From: a virus
Reading direction: 5' to 3' (one strand)
Length of the DNA stretch: 11,770 bases
UHGV virus genome: UHGV-0394577
Positions 2,840-11,477 of this stretch are shown here, one piece after another (position 1 is the first letter of the stretch; each line of letters begins with the position of its first letter). The position numbers and the translations under genes were made by a program. The notes beneath the pieces were generated by a model. That model ran no database searches. It saw nothing but the letters and a program-made list of their open reading frames with translations, and was not told the origin of the DNA.

Positions 2840-3175
2840 ATGAACACTCCATACATTGAGTTATTTGCAGGCAGTCAGCAGGTATCAACGACGCTGGTAC
2901 ATTTTGCCGCTGATGCTGGCGTTATTCAGGAATTTACCCCGCTGATGCTGGTGGACAATGGCGAGTTTAAGCCGTGGGATGGTCAGGAATCTGGCAAGGC
3001 TGTTTATCTGACCTCGTACCCCGTGGACACGTCGACGCAGAAATCAGCACAGTGCTACAAGACGGGGATATTCAATATTGCCGCCGTTAACTGGCCTGAG
3101 AGCGTCGACACCGATGCGAAAAAATGCGCCGCCTTTGCGGGTTCTGGCGTATCCGTTCAGCCGCTGGCCCGATAA
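2840..3175 (+). CDS. head decoration protein, phage lambda gpD-like
   Basis: 111 aa (lambda D is about 110 aa); shared motifs TPLML, WDG, YKTGIF, WPE, AFAGSG; SD GGGGGAT. Gene order here is E then D, the reverse of lambda. Confidence 0.8.
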   Translation: MNTPYIELFAGSQQVSTTLVHFAADAGVIQEFTPLMLVDNGEFKPWDGQESGKAVYLTSYPVDTSTQKSAQCYKTGIFNIAAVNWPESVDTDAKKCAAFAGSGVSVQPLAR

Positions 3176-3187
3176 GCAGGGGGAACG

Positions 3188-3601
3188 ATGGCAACGAATG
3201 AAAGCATCATGACGCTACCGCTGGCGAGTAAATTTAAAGCCGAAGCGCGTGCAATGGCTGACAGAGGTTTATCAACCTATGAGGCCGTATATCAACTAAA
3301 CAAACTGGAAGAGCAGGACAAGCCGCGCGCTGATGCGATTATGGCGCTTCATGAGCATAAAGACTATCAGCCGCTGTTGCGTGCAATGGCAAACGTGCCA
3401 TGTATTAGCGTCGATAATGCTCGTGAAATCCTGAACATGACCATAGACCAGGAGCGCCCAAAGGTTGCGCCGGAGCTTACCGCAGCCTTTGAAAACTTTA
3501 TGGACATGCACAGCCCGCAAGCCGTATCAGCAGGCATGGCATACGATGGAAGAAACCCTGGCGATGACGGCGACATCGATCGCATACTGAAAACCATCTG
3601 A
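3188..3601 (+). CDS. hypothetical protein (137 aa), in the position occupied by FI in lambda
   Basis: Good SD (AGGGGGAA); acidic C-terminus; followed directly by a terminator. No recognisable sequence similarity, positional inference only. Confidence 0.5.
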   Translation: MATNESIMTLPLASKFKAEARAMADRGLSTYEAVYQLNKLEEQDKPRADAIMALHEHKDYQPLLRAMANVPCISVDNAREILNMTIDQERPKVAPELTAAFENFMDMHSPQAVSAGMAYDGRNPGDDGDIDRILKTI

Positions 3602-3606
3602 GACAG

Positions 3607-3631
3607 GCCGGAGAAATCCGGCTTTTTTTTT
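3607..3631 (+). terminator. rho-independent terminator (hairpin GCCGGAGAAATCCGGC + T9)
   Basis: Third copy of the same hairpin, identical to the copy at 972-987; the T-run runs into the cosQ-like sequence. Confidence 0.6.
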
Positions 3632-3698
3632 ACGGGTCCTTTCCGGCATATGGACCCGTTACGGGGCGGCGACCTCGCGCGTTTTCGCTATTTATGAG
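3631..3698 (+). other. lambda-type cos site (cos1): cosQ-like TACGGGTCCTTTCCGG, cosN GGGCGGCGACCT at 3664-3675, start of cosB
   Basis: TTTACGGGTCCTTTCCGG...GTTACGGGGCGGCGACCTCGCG.GTTTTCGCTATTTATGA matches the joined right and left ends of phage lambda DNA as recalled from memory; lies upstream of the Nu1-like gene as in lambda. Confidence 0.75.
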
Positions 3699-3808
3699 CC
3701 TTTTCGGGTTGGTGGTGGTGGTTTTGTTGTTCGCTCTATCTCCATGAATAAAAAGGGAAAGATAACACCAACACACCAACCTGAAGCATTAATTAAGTGG
3801 GGGTATTG

Positions 3809-4351
3809 ATGAAATCGCACCTGATGAACAAAAAAACTATGGCGCAAAGCTGCCGCGTAAGCGCCACTGCGTTCGATAAGTGGGGAGTAACTCCCGTTGA
3901 GCGTAAAGGCCGTGAGGCGTTTTATGATGTTGCTAGCGTGATAGACAATAGGGTTAACAATGCAATTAACCAGCTTACAAACGACAAAGGCGAGATTGAT
4001 GATGATGAACTTTTACGCGTAAGAATCAGATTAATGACGGCCCAGGCGGAAGCGCAGGAACTTAAAAACGAGCGCGAACGCGGCGAGGTGATTGATACAG
4101 AGTTTTGCATGTACGCGCTTTCAAAACTGGCAAGTCAGATTTCTTCAATCATGGACAGCCTCCCGCTTACTATGCAAAGGAACTTCCCACAGATGCCCCC
4201 CGCTATGCTGCATGGGCTTAAGAGGGAAGTAGTTAAAGCCTGTAATGCCAGTGCCAGAGTTGCCGACAACCTCCCACAGATACTGGCTGATTACTTGAAA
4301 GAAACAACCGGAAACGTACCGGAAAAGTTGCTACAGAAGAAAGGCGAGTAA
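3809..4351 (+). CDS. terminase small subunit, lambda Nu1-like
   Basis: Track ORF 3797..4351 begins at GTG; ATG 3809 follows a GGGGG SD. The middle and C-terminal regions resemble lambda Nu1 (RLMTAQAEAQELKNERERGEVIDTEFCMYALSKLASQISSIMDSLPLTMQRNFPQ; LKREVVKACNASA), while the N-terminal putative DNA-binding region is divergent. Confidence 0.85.
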   Translation: MKSHLMNKKTMAQSCRVSATAFDKWGVTPVERKGREAFYDVASVIDNRVNNAINQLTNDKGEIDDDELLRVRIRLMTAQAEAQELKNERERGEVIDTEFCMYALSKLASQISSIMDSLPLTMQRNFPQMPPAMLHGLKREVVKACNASARVADNLPQILADYLKETTGNVPEKLLQKKGE

Positions 4352-4380
4352 CAGACGCGCAATTATTGAACAAAAATGAG

Positions 4381-4441
4381 AAAGGATCTGATAATGGCAT
4401 TTTCTGGCTAAAATGCCTCGTGTCAGATCCTTTCTTTTTTT
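4381..4441 (+). terminator. compound hairpin + T-run: likely terS terminator and, on the opposite strand, the R-element hairpin of cos2 cosB
   Basis: AAAGGATCTGA...TCAGATCCTTT inverted repeat with nested GGCATTTT/AAATGCC stem, followed by T7; geometry mirrors the lambda cosB inverted R elements. Confidence 0.5.
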
Positions 4442-4472
4442 AATATTTTCATTGTTAAACAGTCTGTTACAG

Positions 4473-4571
4473 AGAAGAAGAACGGATCTGACTTTTGCCG
4501 GAAAATTTTCATAAACAGATAAAATCCGCGAGGTCGCCGCCCCGTAACGGGCCATAATTCCAGGAAGGACC
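4473..4571 (-). other. second lambda-type cos site in inverted orientation (cos2): cosQ-like, cosN (4531-4542, minus strand), R3-like CCGTTCTTCTTC
   Basis: Reverse complement reads CGGGTCCTTCC...CCGTTACGGGGCGGCGACCTCGCGGATTTT...TTTATGAAAATTTTCCGG...CCGTTCTTCTTC, matching lambda cos further into cosB than cos1 does. Confidence 0.7.
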
Positions 4572-4606
4572 CGACGACACCAGACTATCAGAACGATGGG
4601 GGCACA

Positions 4607-4888: not shown

Positions 4889-5108
4889 TACGTACGGATA
4901 TCGAGATAAAGACGGTTTTTTTACCCCACTGGGGAAAAGGTACGCACCTGAATCATCATTATCGTGATCAAGGGTATGTAAAGCCCACCAGCCTGATCAA
5001 CAGTTAACCGGAAAAAAAGCCAGGTATGGGGGGGTAGTGGTTAGCCACGAACAACGAACAAGCTGGACACCGCGCCCACTCTCACGCAGAGAAAAAATTA
5101 CCGTTTCG

Positions 5109-5236
5109 TAGTAGTTAACATGTTAACTACCTGATGAAGTGTTTTTATTGATTTTCCCTTTATGATTCATCTGGTTGCGTGCAAAAAATGTTAACTACCT
5201 TTTTGGTAAAAATGTTAACAGGGCAGCGGTTAACAT
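5109..5236. repeat. cluster of five GTTAAC-containing repeats (ATGTTAACTACCT twice)
   Basis: GTTAAC at about 5112, 5121, 5188, 5213 and 5228 within 125 bp of non-coding DNA; possible operator array. Confidence 0.4.
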
Positions 5237-5365
5237 TTAACCTGGCAAAAATTCCGGTAGGTGGTGATCCCCATATCGGGGAACATCCACCAGCTTCGTT
5301 TTTATAAATTAAACACCTGGGAAAATCAGACTCTGAATTGTGCATTTTTTCAGCAAATCATTTTA

Positions 5366-5385
5366 GTTATACGTTTGGTTATACG
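5366..5385. repeat. two direct GTTATACG repeats (12-bp spacing)
   Basis: GTTATACG at 5366-5373 and 5378-5385. Confidence 0.45.
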
Positions 5386-5468
5386 GTTTAAAAGTTGAAT
5401 CAGGAACATTCTTTTAAATCATTCAGTTACATGATCAATTAAACTACTCTCGTGCCGACCAAATTGCC

Positions 5469-5494
5469 CACCGGATATCACCGGAAAGCACCGA
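5469..5494. repeat. three direct CACCGGA repeats at 10-bp phasing
   Basis: CACCGGATATCACCGGAAAGCACCGA; the same dimer recurs at 5553-5569 and 7383-7399. Confidence 0.45.
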
Positions 5495-5509
5495 ATAAGA
5501 CAGGGATAA

Positions 5510-5540
5510 CCCGCTAATCACTTGATTGGCGGGTTTTTTT
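5510..5540 (+). terminator. rho-independent terminator (CCCGCTAATC / GATTGGCGGG stem + T7)
   Basis: 10-bp stem (one G-U pair), 4-nt loop, 7 T; sits between the two CACCGGA repeat sets upstream of int. Confidence 0.5.
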
Positions 5541-5552
5541 ATGGTTTTTAGT

Positions 5553-5569
5553 CACCGGATATCACCGGA
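5553..5569. repeat. CACCGGATATCACCGGA direct repeat (second copy)
   Basis: Identical 17-mer to 5469-5485. Confidence 0.45.
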
Positions 5570-5596
5570 TTTATAAGCTATCAGCCGGATTTTTTA

Positions 5597-5644
5597 GTTA
5601 TACGCTTAGTTATACGGGCTGGCGTATAACTAAAGCCGTATAAC
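5597..5644. promoter_or_regulatory. symmetric array of GTTATACG motifs (two direct then two inverted) just upstream of int
   Basis: GTTATACG at 5597 and 5609, CGTATAAC at 5623 and 5637, forming an imperfect palindrome of about 50 bp centred near 5620, 35-85 bp upstream of the int ATG. Candidate integrase arm-type or regulator binding sites. Confidence 0.45.
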
Positions 5645-5679
5645 TAAAACCCTGTTTTTTCGTGTGGAATCATAGACAT

Positions 5680-6921
5680 ATGGCGAGAAAAACAACCCAA
5701 TTAACCACAGTGCAGATCAAAGCAGCCAGGCCAGCGGAAAAGGAGTACACCCTACAGGACGGCGGGGGGCTTTTTCTCCTGGTCAAACCGTCCGGATCAA
5801 AACTCTGGAGATTTTCCTACTACCGACCATCGGACAAAAAAAGAATATTGCTGAGTTTTGGATCGCTTGAAGATGTTTCCCTGGCTGATGCCAGAAAACG
5901 CCGTAGCGAGTACAGGACGTTAATCAGTGCCGGAACTGACCCGCAGGACCACGAGAGGCAAAAAAGAGAGACAGAGGCCCGAAGACAAGGGAACACGTTC
6001 GAAAATGTGGCGGCGGCATGGTACCAGGTGAAAATCAGCCAGAATCTGGCCCCCAACACGATTAAAGACATCTGGAGATCGCTGGAAAAATATGTATTCC
6101 CGTTCATCGGTAACACGCCAATAGACACCCTGACCGCTCGCAGGTTTGTTGAGGTGCTTACCCCCATCAAGGAACGTGGCAACCTGGAAACACTCAAACG
6201 GGTTTTACAGCGAGTCAATGAAGTAATGGATTACGCCGCCAACAGTGGGCTGATCGATACCAATCCGGCTATGAATGTGCGTAAGGCGTTCCCCTCCCCT
6301 GTAAAAAAACATATGCCAACAATCCGCCCCGAGCAGTTGCCGGAGCTTATGCAGGCTTTATCAGTATCGGCAACAGAACGGCAGACCAGATTACTGATCG
6401 AATGGCAGTTACTGACCGTAACCCGTCCCGCCGAAGCGTCATCAACTCGGTGGGATGAAATCGACATGGACGCGAAGCGATGGACGATACCCGCCGGACG
6501 CATGAAGATGAGGCGTGATCACGTTATCCCGCTTTGTAGTCAGGCTATGGCGGTACTGGAGGCTATGAAACCAATCAGCCATCACCGCGATTACGTTTTC
6601 CCGAGCCTGAAAGACCCACGGCAGCCTATGAACAGCCAGACCGCAAACGCAGCATTGCGGCGGATGGGGTTTGGCGGGGTTCTGGTTTCTCACGGTATGC
6701 GCGCCATATTCAGCACCGCAGCGAACGAAGAAGGATTTGAGCCGGACGTAATAGAGGCCGCACTAGCCCACGTGGACACCAACGAAGTGAGACGGGCATA
6801 CAACCGGAGCAACTACATAGAAAAACGCATCGTGCTTATGCGCTGGTGGGGCGAATTTGTCGAGGCGGCGGCAACGGGCGTGACCCTTGCCAGTGGTAAA
6901 AGGGGTATTCGGGCCGTGTAG
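5680..6921 (+). CDS. int: tyrosine recombinase / integrase, P4-family
   Basis: Track ORF 5662..6921 begins at GTG; ATG at 5680 gives the N-terminus MARKTTQLTTVQIKAARPAEKEYTLQDGGGLFLLVKPSGSKLWRFSYY typical of P4-like integrases; C-terminal catalytic region with R...HVIPL...HGMR..F...A and a Y in RRAYNRSNY. Confidence 0.92.
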   Translation: MARKTTQLTTVQIKAARPAEKEYTLQDGGGLFLLVKPSGSKLWRFSYYRPSDKKRILLSFGSLEDVSLADARKRRSEYRTLISAGTDPQDHERQKRETEARRQGNTFENVAAAWYQVKISQNLAPNTIKDIWRSLEKYVFPFIGNTPIDTLTARRFVEVLTPIKERGNLETLKRVLQRVNEVMDYAANSGLIDTNPAMNVRKAFPSPVKKHMPTIRPEQLPELMQALSVSATERQTRLLIEWQLLTVTRPAEASSTRWDEIDMDAKRWTIPAGRMKMRRDHVIPLCSQAMAVLEAMKPISHHRDYVFPSLKDPRQPMNSQTANAALRRMGFGGVLVSHGMRAIFSTAANEEGFEPDVIEAALAHVDTNEVRRAYNRSNYIEKRIVLMRWWGEFVEAAATGVTLASGKRGIRAV

Positions 6922-7019
6922 CTGTACAGAAAACCAGTAAAAACTACGAAAACCATGTAAAACCGTCGTATAATTGCGGTTCTTGTTACGCCAGGGGATG
7001 CCTTCATGAGTCGGATAAT

Positions 7020-7250
7020 ATGCGGACAAATACAAACAGCAATTGCGACGGGCTGCAACTGGCCCTGATCGTTAAACATGAATTTTGGTCAACCTACGAT
7101 CCGGAGGACAGAACGACAGCCCCATCAAAAAGGCAGGTAGTAGATTTTCTGGTATCCCGTGGGACTTCCAGAAATTTGGCTGAGAGTATCGACAGGGTTG
7201 TAAGGCCCGTATCAATGAAGACCGGAGGCAGGCCAAAAAAATGGCGGTAA
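7020..7250 (+). CDS. hypothetical protein (76 aa)
   Basis: ORF followed by a strong terminator; weak RBS. An ATG at 7006 with a better SD is in another frame and stops after 20 codons, so the true start is uncertain. Confidence 0.35.
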   Translation: MRTNTNSNCDGLQLALIVKHEFWSTYDPEDRTTAPSKRQVVDFLVSRGTSRNLAESIDRVVRPVSMKTGGRPKKWR

Positions 7251-7262
7251 CAATCCTGAAAG

Positions 7263-7285
7263 CGGCAGAAATGCCGCTTTTTTTA
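7263..7285 (+). terminator. rho-independent terminator (GCGGCA-GAAA-TGCCGC + T7)
   Basis: Perfect 6-bp stem, GAAA loop and T-run 12 nt after the stop at 7250. Confidence 0.6.
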
Positions 7286-7314
7286 TAATTCCCTTTCAAA
7301 TCATCAACATAAAA

Positions 7315-7328
7315 AACGGTTATAACCG
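7315..7328. promoter_or_regulatory. perfect 14-bp palindrome ACGGTTATAACCGT upstream of alpA
   Basis: Related to the GTTATACG motif family found upstream of int; about 90 bp upstream of the alpA ATG. Confidence 0.35.
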
Positions 7329-7382
7329 TTTAAAAACGGTGGGAACTGTTTTTACCCATATTCGATGATTTACCGTATTTGT

Positions 7383-7399
7383 CACCGGAATACACCGGA
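7383..7399. repeat. CACCGGAATACACCGGA direct repeat (third copy of the CACCGGA dimer)
   Basis: Lies 19 bp upstream of the alpA start codon. Confidence 0.45.
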
Positions 7400-7417
7400 T
7401 TCACAAGGTAAATCACG

Positions 7418-7624
7418 ATGGAAGCAATCAAAAAAGTCATCTTTCGCCAGGAAGTAAAAAAACTTATCCACATCAAGGCAGACAGCACGCTGCAAAGCAT
7501 GATCAACGCCGGAGAATTCCCGCAGGGTTTTCGCGTTGGTTTACGCCGTCGAGGATGGTATGAGGATGACGTAATCGCCTGGATGAAAGAACGCGAACAG
7601 GAAGCACGCGGAACGGCTGCTTAA
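7418..7624 (+). CDS. alpA: AlpA/Vis-family phage regulatory protein (excisionase-like HTH)
   Basis: 68 aa; STLQSMINAGEFPQGFRVGLRRRGWYEDDVIAWMKER fits the AlpA-family pattern (FP, G.R..GW.E.EV..W); sits downstream of int as in P4-like and PICI elements. Confidence 0.75.
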   Translation: MEAIKKVIFRQEVKKLIHIKADSTLQSMINAGEFPQGFRVGLRRRGWYEDDVIAWMKEREQEARGTAA

Positions 7625-7656
7625 CGGGTATCACAGATATGACGAACACGAAAAAA

Positions 7657-7680
7657 GCGGCCCCGATATGGAGCCGCCTT
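7657..7680 (-). terminator. possible terminator for minus-strand transcripts (5-bp GC stem, then T6 on the minus strand)
   Basis: AAAAAAGCGGC...GCCGCC on the plus strand; on the minus strand the stem is followed by TTTTTT. Weak stem with a long loop. Confidence 0.3.
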
Positions 7681-8000
7681 TCTGAACAATTAACCCGCTG
7701 CGCATTATGTATCAACAAACATAAGCCAGGGCATGATAGCCGCTATCAGGCTGGTGGGCAATGCTATCAGTCTGTTTCAGTGCGTTTCCATAACTGCGAA
7801 GCTCTCTCCTTTGATGAGTATTCTTTAAGGTACTTCTCAAGGGCAAAAGAACACGGCGCGAATCGTTCTGATTCATGCTCTTTCTTTCTGCGTCGTCTTT
7901 TTCGTGCAGGTGATGTTTTTTTGGTTGATTCTTCGTTGGTCATTGTGTGCGCCTGTAAAGCAATGCGCCGGAGTTCCTCACACCACGGCGCTGATAGTTT

Positions 8001-8192: not shown

Positions 8193-8235
8193 GTGGTCAC
8201 CTATTGAATTAGCCTTTCTATTGTTAGGTGACCAC
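8193..8235. promoter_or_regulatory. operator-like inverted repeat GTGGTCACCT-n23-AGGTGACCAC
   Basis: Perfect 10-bp inverted repeat; each half contains the palindromic GGTCACC/GGTGACC core; located at the 5' end of the RHH gene and upstream of the Ash/Icd operon. Confidence 0.4.
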
Positions 8236-8326
8236 CTTAACACAAGAGCACTTAAAAAAGCAAAGCCCCGCAAGTGTCATTACCACTCGCAGGGCTTCTA
8301 ACCAACAACGTAAACTAGGAGCCGTT

Positions 8327-8524
8327 ATGGTTGCCGTAAATCATATAACACACCTTGTACACACACAAACGGCCTTTGTGTGGCGTTTTCTGGCCCTGAG
8401 TGCCGGAGAATCTCAAATCATCCACGTAACCGCCTGGACGGAACGCGAAGCGCGTAGCCGTTGCCCGTCAGGTTGTGTTGCTGTATTTGCCGCTCGTATT
8501 CGTCAGGGGTCACATCATGCGTAA
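8327..8524 (+). CDS. Ash/Icd-like small protein (P4-type), short paralog
   Basis: 65 aa from ATG 8327 (SD TAGGAG), internal to track ORF 8228..8524. TAFVWRFLALS...VTAWTEREARSRCP...VFAARIRQG is paralogous to the C-terminus of the next ORF and resembles Ash/Icd-like proteins as recalled from memory. Confidence 0.5.
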   Translation: MVAVNHITHLVHTQTAFVWRFLALSAGESQIIHVTAWTEREARSRCPSGCVAVFAARIRQGSHHA

Positions 8525-8984
8525 AAACCGCTTGCAAAAAATTATAACGGGGCTGTATGCTTCCCCCGTCGCCCACATGGCGACCGGGTTTGACAGCCTG
8601 AATACTGTAGCGGACAGCCGCTTACATTCCGATATGCGGTTTTTTTGTGTCCGTAAACCTACCCATACCCGCATTATGGCGGGGCGTAACGGGGGAGCCT
8701 TTGCGCTCGCTGGTTCCTACAGTACCAGTCTGTCAACCCTGTTACGTCTCGCCACCATGTTTGACAGCGTAGTAGCGAGACTCCTTAAAATTACTGTAGG
8801 AGCCTTTCACATGGCTGTATCCGCACGCCCTTACTTTGTCTGGCGCTTTATGCAGTGCCACCACAGCAGCATTGATGTATTCACCGTTACCGCAGCCACT
8901 GAACGCGAAGCACGCGCCCAGCTGCCGCACGCACATCTGATTTTTGTCGCCCGTATTCGTCAGGGGAAAACCTATGCACAATAA
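8517..8984 (+). CDS. Ash-family-like protein, long paralog
   Basis: 155 aa from ATG 8517 (SD AGGGGT); start overlaps the previous stop (ATGCGTAA); C-terminus YFVWRFMQC...VTAATEREARAQLP...IFVARIRQG is homologous to the upstream ORF. Confidence 0.5.
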   Translation: MRKNRLQKIITGLYASPVAHMATGFDSLNTVADSRLHSDMRFFCVRKPTHTRIMAGRNGGAFALAGSYSTSLSTLLRLATMFDSVVARLLKITVGAFHMAVSARPYFVWRFMQCHHSSIDVFTVTAATEREARAQLPHAHLIFVARIRQGKTYAQ

Positions 8985-9426: not shown

Positions 9427-9726
9427 ATGAAACTTAAATATCCTGGCTTAACTGCCAGCGGCAAAACTCGCACTAAATTCATGTGCGGGGATATTTACCG
9501 CGATAAGTACGGCGGCACGGTAATGATTAAGAGCGTGGAGGAACGGCGCGTAACTTACCGTCGTGAAGGCTACCAATATGATTGCGTGATGCCTGTTTAT
9601 CAGTTCGAACGTGATTTTTCTCTTGTGCAGGCCGTACCGCGTAACGTGCCCACCAGCAGGGAGAAAGCACGCGCCAATATTCAGGAAATAAGAAAGATGT
9701 TGAACGTATTCAGGGGTAAAAAATGA
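9427..9726 (+). CDS. hypothetical protein (99 aa)
   Basis: ATG 9427 with GGAG 10 nt upstream; stop overlaps the primase start (ATGA). Confidence 0.5.
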   Translation: MKLKYPGLTASGKTRTKFMCGDIYRDKYGGTVMIKSVEERRVTYRREGYQYDCVMPVYQFERDFSLVQAVPRNVPTSREKARANIQEIRKMLNVFRGKK

Positions 9727-11477
9727 AACTTGCACCGAACGTAAAACAGCAGTCACGCGGCATAAAACACAAAGGAACAGAAGTCATTATTTTTGCGGGT
9801 AGTGATGCCTGGTCACACGCTAAACAATGGCAGGAACATGACGCGCGTATGGCCGGAGATAATGAGCCTCCTGTGTGGCTTGGGGATCAGCAGTTATCCG
9901 AACTGGATAAGCTGCAAATTGTGCCGGAAGGCCGAAAATCAGTACGCATATTCAGGGCCGGACATCTTGAACCTGTAATGATAAAGGCGATTGGTCAGAA
10001 GCTGGCGGCGGCAGGTGTACAGGATGCAAATTTTTACCCTGAGGGAATGCACGTTCAGGAGGTGGAGAACTGGCGCGAATATCTGGCCCGTGAGCGCCAG
10101 AATCTTTCTGAAGGTCTGTTCGTTGAGCTTCCGGTAAAGCAAAAGGCGCAACTTTCGCAGATGGCGGACAGTGAACGCGCTCAGCTGCTTTCCGATCGCT
10201 TTGATGGCGTTTGCGTACATCCTGAAAGTGAAATCGTTCACGTATGGCGCGGCGGGGTATGGTGTCCGGTCAGCACAATGGAACTTAGCCGCGAAATGGT
10301 GGCGATCTATTCAGAGCACAGGGCCACTTTCAGCAAGCGCGTAATCAATAACGCCGTTGAAGCGTTAAAAGTTATTGCCGAACCAATGGGCGAGCCGTCC
10401 GGCGATTTGTTGCCGTTCGCCAATGGTGCGCTTGACCTGAAAACGGGGGAATTTTCCCCGCACACGCCGGAGAACTGGATCACCACGCACAACGGTATTG
10501 AGTACACGCCACCAGCACCAGGGGAGAACATCCGCGATAACGCGCCAAATTTTCATAAATGGCTTGAGCACGCAGCCGGAAAAGACCCGCGCAAGATGAT
10601 GCGTATATGTGCCGCGCTGTACATGATTATGGCGAACCGGTACGACTGGCAGATGTTTATTGAGGCCACCGGAGACGGCGGAAGCGGTAAAAGTACATTC
10701 ACGCATATAGCCAGCCTTCTGGCAGGGAAACAGAACACGGTAAGCGCTGAAATGACCTCACTTGATGATGCTGGTGGACGTGCGCAGGTTGTCGGGAGTC
10801 GTCTTATCGTCCTGGCTGACCAGCCGAAATATACAGGCGAAGGAACGGGCATCAAGAAAATCACGGGCGGCGACCCCGTGGAAATTAACCCGAAATATGA
10901 AAAGCGTTTCACGGCGGTAATCAGGGCGGTGGTGCTGACGACCAACAACAACCCGATGATATTCACCGAACGGGCCGGAGGCGTGGCACGTCGTCGGGTT
11001 ATTTTTCGCTTTGACAATATCGTTAGCGAGGCAGAAAAGGACAAGGATTTGCCGGAGAAGGTCGCGGCTGAAATCCCTGTGATTATCCGCCGATTACTGG
11101 CGAACTTTGCCGACCCTGAAAAGGCCCGGGCTTTACTCCTGGAACAGCGCGACGGTGATGAAGCACTGGCAATAAAGCAACAGACGGATCCGGTTATTGA
11201 GTTTTGCCAGTTCCTGAATTTTCTGGAGGAAGCGCGCGGCCTGATGATGGGTGGCGGTGGCGATTCAGTGAAGTACACGACCAGGAACAGCCTTTACCGC
11301 GTCTATCTGGCGTTTATGGCGTACGCAGGCAGGAGCAAACCGCTAAACGTAAATGACTTTGGCAAGGCTATGAAGCCCGCTGCAAAAGTTTACGGACATG
11401 AATATATTACGCGGAAAGTTAAGGGAGTAACGCAGACTAACGCAATAACAACAGACGATTGTGACGCGTTTTTATAA
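9723..11477 (+). CDS. P4-alpha-like primase/helicase replication protein (SF3 helicase domain)
   Basis: 584 aa; Walker A GDGGSGKST, Walker B-like LIVLAD, later VVLTTNN motif; architecture typical of P4-family/PICI primase-helicase; iteron origin immediately downstream. Confidence 0.88.
   Translation: MKLAPNVKQQSRGIKHKGTEVIIFAGSDAWSHAKQWQEHDARMAGDNEPPVWLGDQQLSELDKLQIVPEGRKSVRIFRAGHLEPVMIKAIGQKLAAAGVQDANFYPEGMHVQEVENWREYLARERQNLSEGLFVELPVKQKAQLSQMADSERAQLLSDRFDGVCVHPESEIVHVWRGGVWCPVSTMELSREMVAIYSEHRATFSKRVINNAVEALKVIAEPMGEPSGDLLPFANGALDLKTGEFSPHTPENWITTHNGIEYTPPAPGENIRDNAPNFHKWLEHAAGKDPRKMMRICAALYMIMANRYDWQMFIEATGDGGSGKSTFTHIASLLAGKQNTVSAEMTSLDDAGGRAQVVGSRLIVLADQPKYTGEGTGIKKITGGDPVEINPKYEKRFTAVIRAVVLTTNNNPMIFTERAGGVARRRVIFRFDNIVSEAEKDKDLPEKVAAEIPVIIRRLLANFADPEKARALLLEQRDGDEALAIKQQTDPVIEFCQFLNFLEEARGLMMGGGGDSVKYTTRNSLYRVYLAFMAYAGRSKPLNVNDFGKAMKPAAKVYGHEYITRKVKGVTQTNAITTDDCDAFL

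Follow-up and report, generated by a model that had tools for sequence, protein, structure and literature searches.

That a satellite can encode its own small terminase subunit (TerS) and redirect the large subunit (TerL) of a helper phage is textbook knowledge for the pac-type Staphylococcus aureus pathogenicity islands (SaPIs). Here we describe a terS gene of the lambda Nu1 family (positions 3809-4351, + strand) on a cos-type satellite of Escherichia coli found in virus genome UHGV-0394577, the whole analysed stretch of which, 11,770 bp, is called the window below. Comparison with related loci gives good support to a private recognition pair formed by this protein and the cosB segment (cosB1) of the adjacent cos site, cos1, and the satellite TerS probably reads cosB1 and brings a helper TerL to cos1.

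In the model E. coli phage-inducible chromosomal island (PICI), EcCICFT073, two cos sites are functional and the cosB of cos1 is essential (PMC6092414, PMC6739421). For Rpp, redirection of packaging to cos1 has been demonstrated (Fillol-Salom et al. 2019, PMC6739421); unlike the satellite TerS described here, RppA has 144 aa, is without the C-terminal half and must borrow phage TerS (PMC6739421; PMC9026076). SaPI TerS, as far as the work of Ubeda et al. (2007) is cited in PMC6739421, resembles the present case in that a satellite TerS acts with helper TerL on a satellite-specific packaging site, but it differs in pac/headful packaging, Gram-positive hosts, an unrelated TerS family and a separate Ppi inhibitor. 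The capsid-forming PICIs (cf-PICIs; bioRxiv 10.1101/2022.09.08.507074) are, like the window element, E. coli PICIs with packaging and capsid genes of their own; they encode the whole head set plus HNH, TerS and TerL, whereas the window element carries only a capsid shell set and TerS. In a survey published in 2018, TerS genes were recorded in some E. coli PICIs, and neither of the two islands tested there transferred (PMC6092414). Literature searches for a characterised Nu1-type TerS in Gram-negative PICIs yielded this remark only, and cos-type satellite TerS is not among the characterised strategies in later reviews or in the cf-PICI paper. The satellite-TerS strategy is already known and the gene is already annotated (in relatives the same frame is named ‘terminase small subunit’ by NCBI's pipeline), yet the cos-type Nu1 version, which is common, is uncharacterised in the literature searched.

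On the phage side, genetic mapping placed the R3 element of N15 at bp 48-59 and showed bp 54-59 to matter most, and N15-type TerS is promiscuous, packaging lambda DNA and tolerating heterologous cosB (PMC4669245). A cosB with three such sites has been called Monarch-type by Feiss and colleagues (Feiss et al. 2015, PMC4669245).

Domain comparison of the satellite TerS

The terS frame is intact, with an ATG at 3809, a stop at 4351 and GGGGG at 3799-3803, five bases upstream, as ribosome-binding site; the program-made open reading frame (ORF) begins earlier, at GTG 3797. The gene lies directly downstream of cosN-cosB, with its ATG at bp 146, counted from the base that begins the cosN 12-mer GGGCGGCGACCT, and thus shares with lambda Nu1 its place to the right of cosQ-cosN-cosB. 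The 180-aa product was assigned to the Nu1 family, whose helical plan it has in common with lambda gpNu1, by Pfam (Phage_Nu1, PF07471; E 2.1e-22, 80 bits with a cut-off of 30), by PHROG 57 ‘terminase small subunit’ (E 3e-52, residues 1-174) and by BLASTP with lambda Nu1 (36% identity, E 1e-32). Its best phage match was N15 gp1, 46% identical overall. The PF07471 alignment takes in residues 33-148 only, reaching profile position 162 of 164, and the DNA-binding domain (DBD) was missed both by the Pfam profile and by the Nu1 domain in the PDB: a PDB sequence search with TerS returned neither the Nu1 DBD (1J9I) nor Rpp/RppC, the one match, to an ankyrin repeat, being spurious.

An earlier note, written from the letters of this DNA, had held that the protein keeps the C-terminal half of Nu1 and differs from it in the N-terminal DNA-binding region, and had proposed a pairwise alignment scored by domain. 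We aligned the window TerS to lambda Nu1 accordingly and found uneven similarity: 29% identity in the DBD (lambda residues 1-68), 43% in the linker (69-99), 51% in the assembly region (100-140) and 29% in the gpA-binding tail (141-181). The N-terminal difference was therefore borne out. Of the supposedly conserved C-terminal half only the middle stood, since the tail that should dock TerL has departed from lambda no less than the N-terminus has and ends in a 13-aa extension, TTGNVPEKLLQKKGE, which is absent from all phage proteins compared. Nor is divergence from lambda at the N-terminus in itself a satellite signature, as the note had taken it to be, because N15 and Monarch-type phages carry the same DBD type. 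The satellite DBD is 56-62% identical to those of N15 gp1 and Monarch-type prophage TerS (57% for the Monarch-type prophage DBD), with a short wing and the helix core AFDKWGV common to all.

The central region is the best-kept part against every phage TerS class compared (43-61%). The tail is closest to that of the PhiR5_1 class of phage TerS (44-49%) and, in contrast to the DBD, is only 32-43% identical to the tails of N15 and Monarch-type proteins. Judged from these identities, TerS is a mosaic of an N15/Monarch-type reader (residues 1-50, a predicted winged-helix DBD), a generic Nu1 core (the helical assembly region, residues ~65-127) and a satellite-type tail (the variable residues 128-180).

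Within the reader, the recognition helix sets the satellite protein apart from its phage relatives. It reads SATAFDKWGV, and its SATAFDKW in place of the SVQAFDKW of N15 puts the protein outside the N15/Monarch specificity group by helix. The position held by Gln in N15/Monarch phages, at the start of the recognition helix and aligned to lambda Arg17, is Thr in all 112 homologues with an intact N-terminus.

The cosB segment of cos1

The conserved arm of cos1 (3633-3708, + strand) is the left arm of an inverted cos pair, 76 nt long and 79% complementary to 4498-4573. It contains cosQ (GGGTCCT, 3634-3640), the cohesive-end 12-mer of cosN (3664-3675), which is identical to that of lambda (L001:1-12), and an I2-like segment. 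Beyond cosN follows the R3-equivalent of cosB1, TGGTGGTGGTTTTGTTGTT (3713-3731, + strand), in which GGTGGTGGT, that is (GGT)3, occupies bp 51-59 from cosN and TTTGTTGTT continues up to bp 68, giving an R3-like site GGTGGTGGT..GTTGTT at bp 51-68. We propose this element as the primary binding site of TerS. The R2-equivalent is ACACCAACCTGAA when read on the + strand (3773-3785) and is oriented on the - strand; its conserved half, ACACCAACC, reads GGTTGGTGT on the other strand at bp 110-118.

These registers are those of a Monarch-type cosB. A prophage of E. coli K56-43 (L166), whose recognition helix is identical to that of N15, has a three-site Monarch-type cosB in which GGTTGTTGT stands at bp 51-59, returns in inverted form at bp 110-118 and occurs a third time at bp 188, and the satellite cos1 is collinear with it over most of its length. 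The satellite R3 stands in the same register as the Monarch-type R3 and about one bp from that of N15, and shares the GGTnGTnGT pattern with both; as in the Monarch type, R2 is inverted. The R3 expected of the N15/Monarch group is of GGTTGTTGT type at bp ~48-59, and here the register is the same but the sequence is not: GGTGGTGGT has G for T at bp 54 and 57, and the R2 sequence GGTTGGTGT one G for T. There is no R1 in cosB1, because terS starts at bp 146. Taken together with the DBD, the TerS/cosB1 pair looks derived from the cos-terS region of a Monarch-type phage. The satellite R elements are unrelated to the CGTTTCC type of lambda.

The earlier note had described GGTGGTGGTGG (3711-3721) and CACCAACACACCAACC (3766-3781) as an inverted pair in place of R elements. 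Both are present at these positions, and the inverted pair is real in position and orientation (an imperfect inverted repeat of 12 nt at 3703-3714 and 3774-3785, 92% complementary). We found, however, that the repeats do not replace R elements but are diverged R3 and R2 homologues, and that, with the positions right, the conserved cores TGGTGGTGGTTTTGTTGTT and ACACCAACCTGAA are narrower than the spans given; relatives differ from one another at 3766-3772 and in the inverted repeat's left arm. Exact GGTGGTGGT occurs at one site only in the window. Allowing one mismatch raised the number of matches to 11, compared with 2.1 expected, and none of 200 shuffles reached 11. When cosB1 was compared with 50,697 phage records, no match was found.

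Two further candidates in this segment were rejected. An inverted partner, GTTTTGTTGTTC and GAACAAAAAAAC (3721-3732 and 3826-3837), was considered as an analogue of the N15 ‘rR2’ element; its right arm consists of the Asn-Lys-Lys codons conserved in all Nu1 genes. The (GGT)n block was also read as Chi-like. A true Chi octamer, GCTGGTGG, stands at the left edge of the block in the cos1 of some relatives (L027, L073, L078-L084), and the window has GTTGGTGG, one mismatch from the octamer, at 3708-3715. The octamer is limited to those relatives, and the conserved core is TGGTGGTGG.

Conservation and covariation of TerS and cosB1

We compared 80 related loci (L007-L086) from viral contigs, in which TerS is 80-95% identical. 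Variable sites numbered 8 of 50 in TerS residues 1-50 versus 26 of 38 in residues 128-165, and dN/dS was 0.04 in the DBD, 0.13 in the middle and 0.23 in the tail (0.15 overall), so that the whole gene is under purifying selection, most strongly in the DBD. Across the 48 unique upstream sequences, TGGTGGTGGTTTTGTTGTT was near-invariant and the ACACCAACCTGAA block invariant. The cosN of the same loci occurs in at least four forms, among them GGGCGTCAGGCG, GGGCGGAAGGCG and GGGCGGCAGACG (with L061-L072, L078, L083-L084 and L166 taken together, the cos1 variants are these three and GGGCGTCGACCT), and their second cos site, cos2, has R elements of four types (A-D), is truncated or is absent, with the TerS DBD essentially unchanged. 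The truncated form of cos2 is cut off inside cosN, right at the terS stop codon.

A second class of satellite TerS was found in nine loci (L091, L095, L096, L101, L111, L149, L115, L119 and L129). These proteins, of 194 aa (200 aa in L111), have an N-terminal half of the 21/lambda type fused to the same satellite-type C-terminal half and extension. Their cos1 has R3, R2 and R1 of the 21 type (CATGTCGGTACTTCT and partners) in place of (GGT)3, and their cos2 is of type A. Satellites of Enterobacter and Citrobacter gave a complementary picture: TerS is only 57% identical with the same helix core, and GGTGGTGGT is found at exactly bp 51-59 (for example in L087), in flanking DNA that is otherwise unrelated.

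That the satellite TerS is paired with a cosB at cos1 distinct from the one at cos2, as the earlier note had it, is thus upheld by co-conservation in the 80 loci, by the swap to 21-type elements in the second class, by the recurrence of GGTGGTGGT across genera and by the Gln-to-Thr change fixed in all 112 homologues. It also agrees with this claim that no phage record matches cosB1, whereas the R3 of the phage-like cos2 sits in real prophages (see below). We therefore consider a private TerS/cosB1 recognition pair well supported by the comparative data. The gene is widespread: of 5,426 complete E. coli genomes, 762 (~14%) carry it, and it was always intact at 180 aa (78 of 78 full-length sampled loci).

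cos2 and the exchangeable cassette

The second cos site points towards cos1. Its conserved arm (4498-4573, - strand), the right arm of the inverted pair, contains the cosN 12-mer (4531-4542) and cosQ. Its cosB, cosB2 (4373-4492, - strand), is an array of phage type with the R consensus TCAGATCCkTTCT and is made up of R3 (4474-4492), an element I1 like the binding site of integration host factor (IHF) between R3 and R2 (4441-4453, one mismatch to the IHF consensus), R2 (4422-4439) and R1 (4373-4391), all on the - strand. The array lies 22 bp from the terS stop codon. The cos2 R3 sequence was found in 76 viral contigs. Many of these are as long as a phage genome (~40-50 kb), and in them genes for a phage TerS and a gpA-like TerL come after the R3 on its own strand; the cosB2 region matched 97 phage records. 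The prophage TerS next to such an R3 is 21-like or PhiR5_1-like, with DBDs 32-35% identical to that of the satellite. In our proposal, cos2 is a helper-type cos present as a separate copy that can be swapped, and phage TerS, not the satellite protein, would read it.

Together cosB1, terS and cosB2 make up a packaging-specificity cassette that appears exchangeable (3706-4497), bounded ~42-45 bp inside each cosN. Comparison of the window with EcCICFT073 gave 91.7% identity up to 3705 and 90.4% from 4498, with no similarity between, and the slot between these points holds cosB1-rppA-cosB2 in EcCICFT073. The break points fall at the borders of the inverted 76-nt cos arms. A cassette flipped between these arms was looked for and not found, as terS is co-oriented with the gene for the D-like protein and the 93-aa gene in 80 of 80 loci.

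The satellite TerS and Rpp of the EcCICFT073-type PICIs therefore have in common their place between two convergent cos sites, in backbones that are 91% identical, pairing with a private cosB at cos1 and a presumed purpose, the diversion of helper packaging to the island. The proteins themselves are unlike in sequence. Pairwise BLASTP of TerS with RppA gave E 0.23 and no meaningful alignment, and TerS has 180 aa with a full C-terminal half, as against ~140-155 aa without the TerS C-terminal half in Rpp. As a separate observation, the cos1 of EcCICFT073 (L006:2559-2720) has ACACCACCACCAC at bp 53-65, which is the reverse complement of the (GGT)n motif at 3711-3722 of the window, with proteins that are unrelated in sequence. 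This stretch covers the Rpp site proposed by Murialdo and Feiss (PMC9026076).

Some relatives that carry terS are integrated in late genes of prophages: in the major capsid gene in E. coli K56-43 (L166:12686-24447) and in Enterobacter/Citrobacter contigs (L087-L089), and in the portal gene in E. coli strain 48 (L167:10520-23961). The published helper-embedded PICI 11capE is described as being without terS (PMC10111431). The cosN of the L166 cos1 (21300-21500) differs at 6 of 12 positions from that of the embedding prophage. Matching of the tail class or cos2 type to the helper was also considered for these relatives; it was suggestive in L166 (Monarch-type DBD, PhiR5_1-class tail, 40-43%) and contradicted in L167, where the prophage terminase is identical to lambda's, the tail is 35% identical and cos2 is of 21-like type, and we therefore make no claim of helper matching.

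Packaging model and alternative explanations

No TerL, portal or protease was found among the ORFs of the 11.77-kb element (ORF list, Pfam and profile searches). Downstream of terS there are cos2 and then the 93-aa ORF, with no adjacent large terminase gene, which is a further difference from N15 and Monarch phages, as is the nature of the element, a satellite. A helper motor is therefore needed to cut and package the island. We think it likely, from the comparisons above, that the satellite TerS reads the cosB of cos1 and brings a helper TerL to the lambda-type cosN, so that the island is packaged. A lambdoid helper would induce the island, which would replicate; TerS dimers would then bind the R3-like site (bp 51-68), and probably also the inverted R2-like site (bp 110-118), through their winged-helix DBDs, discriminating cos1 from the helper's own cosB. 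The helper's large terminase would thereby be placed on the cosN 50 bp away, where it would nick the DNA and package island concatemers rightwards from cos1. Such a specificity could have arisen by T-to-G changes at bp 54 and 57 of R3 and at one position of R2, with Gln-to-Thr at the start of the recognition helix. As to the manner of recruitment, we lean weakly towards direct docking of TerL by the satellite tail, because purifying selection acts on this tail, which has kept its full length and aligns to the Nu1 profile.

Several observations weigh against this model. cosB1 has no sequence within one mismatch of the IHF consensus between its R3- and R2-like sites, another departure from N15 and Monarch-type cosB, and the R2-like site is absent from the Enterobacter-type satellite L087. 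Given the promiscuity of N15-type TerS (PMC4669245), a difference of 2 bp in R3 may not give real discrimination. The tail is only 29-49% identical to the phage TerS tails compared. It does not track the terminase class of the embedding prophage in the helper-embedded relatives L166 and L167; the L167 prophage has a lambda-identical terminase, yet the satellite tail there is 35% identical to that of lambda. Structure prediction was also of little help: the AlphaFold2 model of TerS, built on a 10-sequence alignment, had low confidence (pLDDT 58.8 overall) and was not relied on, and a Foldseek search of the PDB with it returned nothing at E <= 0.001, with weak matches of the MerR-type winged helix-turn-helix (best E 0.18). 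Residues 1-40 of the same low-confidence model show a helix-helix-hairpin-helix topology (pLDDT 70-74).

The behaviour of the tail is what would be expected if the satellite protein worked in the manner of Rpp, co-assembling with helper TerS through the central helical region, so that the satellite contributed the DBD that reads cos1 and the phage tail bound TerL, with phage packaging poisoned meanwhile. Rpp works exactly so (PMC6739421), and terS lies in the rppA slot; conservation with each of the phage TerS classes is highest in the central region, the tail is peculiar to satellites and does not go with the helper's class, and a DBD 57% identical to that of a Monarch-type helper makes mixed dimers conceivable. 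A hetero-oligomer would leave it hard to explain, if the tail were dispensable, why a full-length helical C-terminal half that reaches position 162 of 164 in the Nu1 profile has been kept at a dN/dS of 0.23, and we regard it as rather unlikely. The likeness to Monarch phages also allows another view, namely that the pair has the same specificity as N15/Monarch helpers, which could package the island or compete with it and no redirection would take place. The same DBD type and R3/R2 registers, R sites differing at only 1-2 bp, the one relative embedded in a Monarch-type prophage and the tolerance of N15-type TerS for heterologous cosB (PMC4669245) all fit this view. It is harder to reconcile with the placement of the differences in the genetically critical bp 54-59 block (PMC4669245), with their fixation together with Gln-to-Thr in 112 of 112 homologues and across genera, with the absence of the (GGT)3 version from all 50,697 phage records and with another relative being embedded in a lambda-type prophage. 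Shared specificity is thus unlikely in our estimation.

Two other explanations receive little credit. Were the satellite TerS to read the R elements of cos2, with the (GGT)n block at cos1 incidental, the same DBD would not be expected beside a cos2 of type A, B, C or D, a truncated one or none; the cos2 R3, moreover, occurs in real prophages beside 21-like or PhiR5_1-like TerS with DBDs only 32-35% identical. We hold this to be very improbable, in spite of the complete R3-I1-R2-R1 array only 22 bp past the terS stop. It would be just as surprising if terS were a decaying phage remnant that now does nothing, or if the (GGT)n block served as a promoter or a Chi-like element and not as a terminase site. 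A dN/dS of 0.15 overall and 0.04 in the DBD, and a gene present in 762 genomes and intact at 180 aa in 78 of 78 full-length samples, do not resemble decay; the conserved core of the block is TGGTGGTGG and not GCTGGTGG, and no sigma-70-like promoter was called in cosB1. These features outweigh the lack of an adjacent terL, the true Chi octamer at the left edge of the block in some relatives and the failure of the 2018 test strains to transfer (PMC6092414). The model in which the satellite TerS reads cosB1 and recruits a helper TerL thus appears to us the most adequate account of these data.

Island context

The window is the excised circular form of a Gram-negative PICI of the EcCICFT073 type from E. 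coli. It has the features of this type of cos PICI: an int-alpA-pri/rep backbone (~91% identical to the right end of EcCICFT073), a size within ~10-20 kb, attachment (att) sites, a lambda-type cos and an incomplete virion set. In an integrated relative, L002 of E. coli BEC1-S17, tRNA-Pro is followed in turn by int, alpA, primase, SSB, capsid, decoration, a 137-aa ORF, terS, a 93-aa ORF and host DNA. Positions 5281-5456 of the window correspond to the attR side and 5439-7998 to the attL side of a relative integrated at tRNA-Pro; the left and right island ends are joined in the window at the 18-bp overlap 5439-5456, the att core. The stretch 4889-5661, which holds this core, includes a perfect IHF consensus at 5515-5527, just upstream of int.

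Pfam searches identified an integrase (5662-6921), a weak AlpA-like match (7418-7624; 17.6 bits, under the cut-off of 21), a D5/P4-type primase (9723-11477), SSB (271-681), a PerC-like regulator (572-964; E 1.5e-41), a lambda E-like capsid protein (1773-2828) and a D-like decoration protein (2840-3175). The scaffold-like 137-aa ORF (3188-3601), which separates the gene for this last protein from cos1, matches PHROG 53, the family of head maturation proteases, at its C-terminal end (E 1.3e-10; positions 495-567 of 583), the segment where the lambda Nu3 scaffold lies. The island thus has a capsid shell set of E-like protein, D-like protein and scaffold-like ORF. Two adjacent ORFs at 8228-8984 have in common a repeated FVWRF...TEREAR...ARIRQG motif, and in the corresponding region relatives carry annotations of Icd-like cell-division inhibitors.

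A hairpin that resembles an intrinsic terminator and is followed by a T-run (3605-3624, + strand; an 8-pair stem with 5 GC pairs) ends the upstream gene of the capsid module and is situated directly upstream of cosQ. With this hairpin in place, terS would need either read-through, for example by helper antitermination, or a promoter of its own.

Implications for Gram-negative satellites

Rpp is the only characterised route for E. coli cos-type PICIs, and in the element described here a full-length Nu1-type TerS with its own cosB fills the Rpp slot. The interest of the locus lies in the clean covariation of reader and site, the Monarch-type origin and the exchange of terS and rpp cassettes. We tentatively suggest that the (GGT)3 cosB and the Thr-helix TerS represent a natural packaging-specificity switch from a Monarch-type module, for which some three altered bases and between one and three altered residues would have been enough, with the TerS working without phage TerS; that terS and rpp are alternative inserts between the inverted cos arms; and that the TerS form is ancestral and was later replaced by Rpp. 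As a whole this scheme is possible, though we would not count on it.

If true, it would rank with a borrowed cos and with Rpp as a third way in which Gram-negative satellites are packaged, and would bear on the open question of the origin of Rpp. Should the satellite TerS work in the manner of the packaging model above, it would be a candidate ancestor of Rpp or an alternative to it, and the locus would be a compact natural case of rewritten cos specificity, involving two or three bp in R3/R2 and a recognition-helix residue, and orthogonal cos/TerS pairs of this kind may offer a practical handle for cosmid-like delivery. On the same condition, the satellite TerS could explain which helpers move these islands and their cargo.

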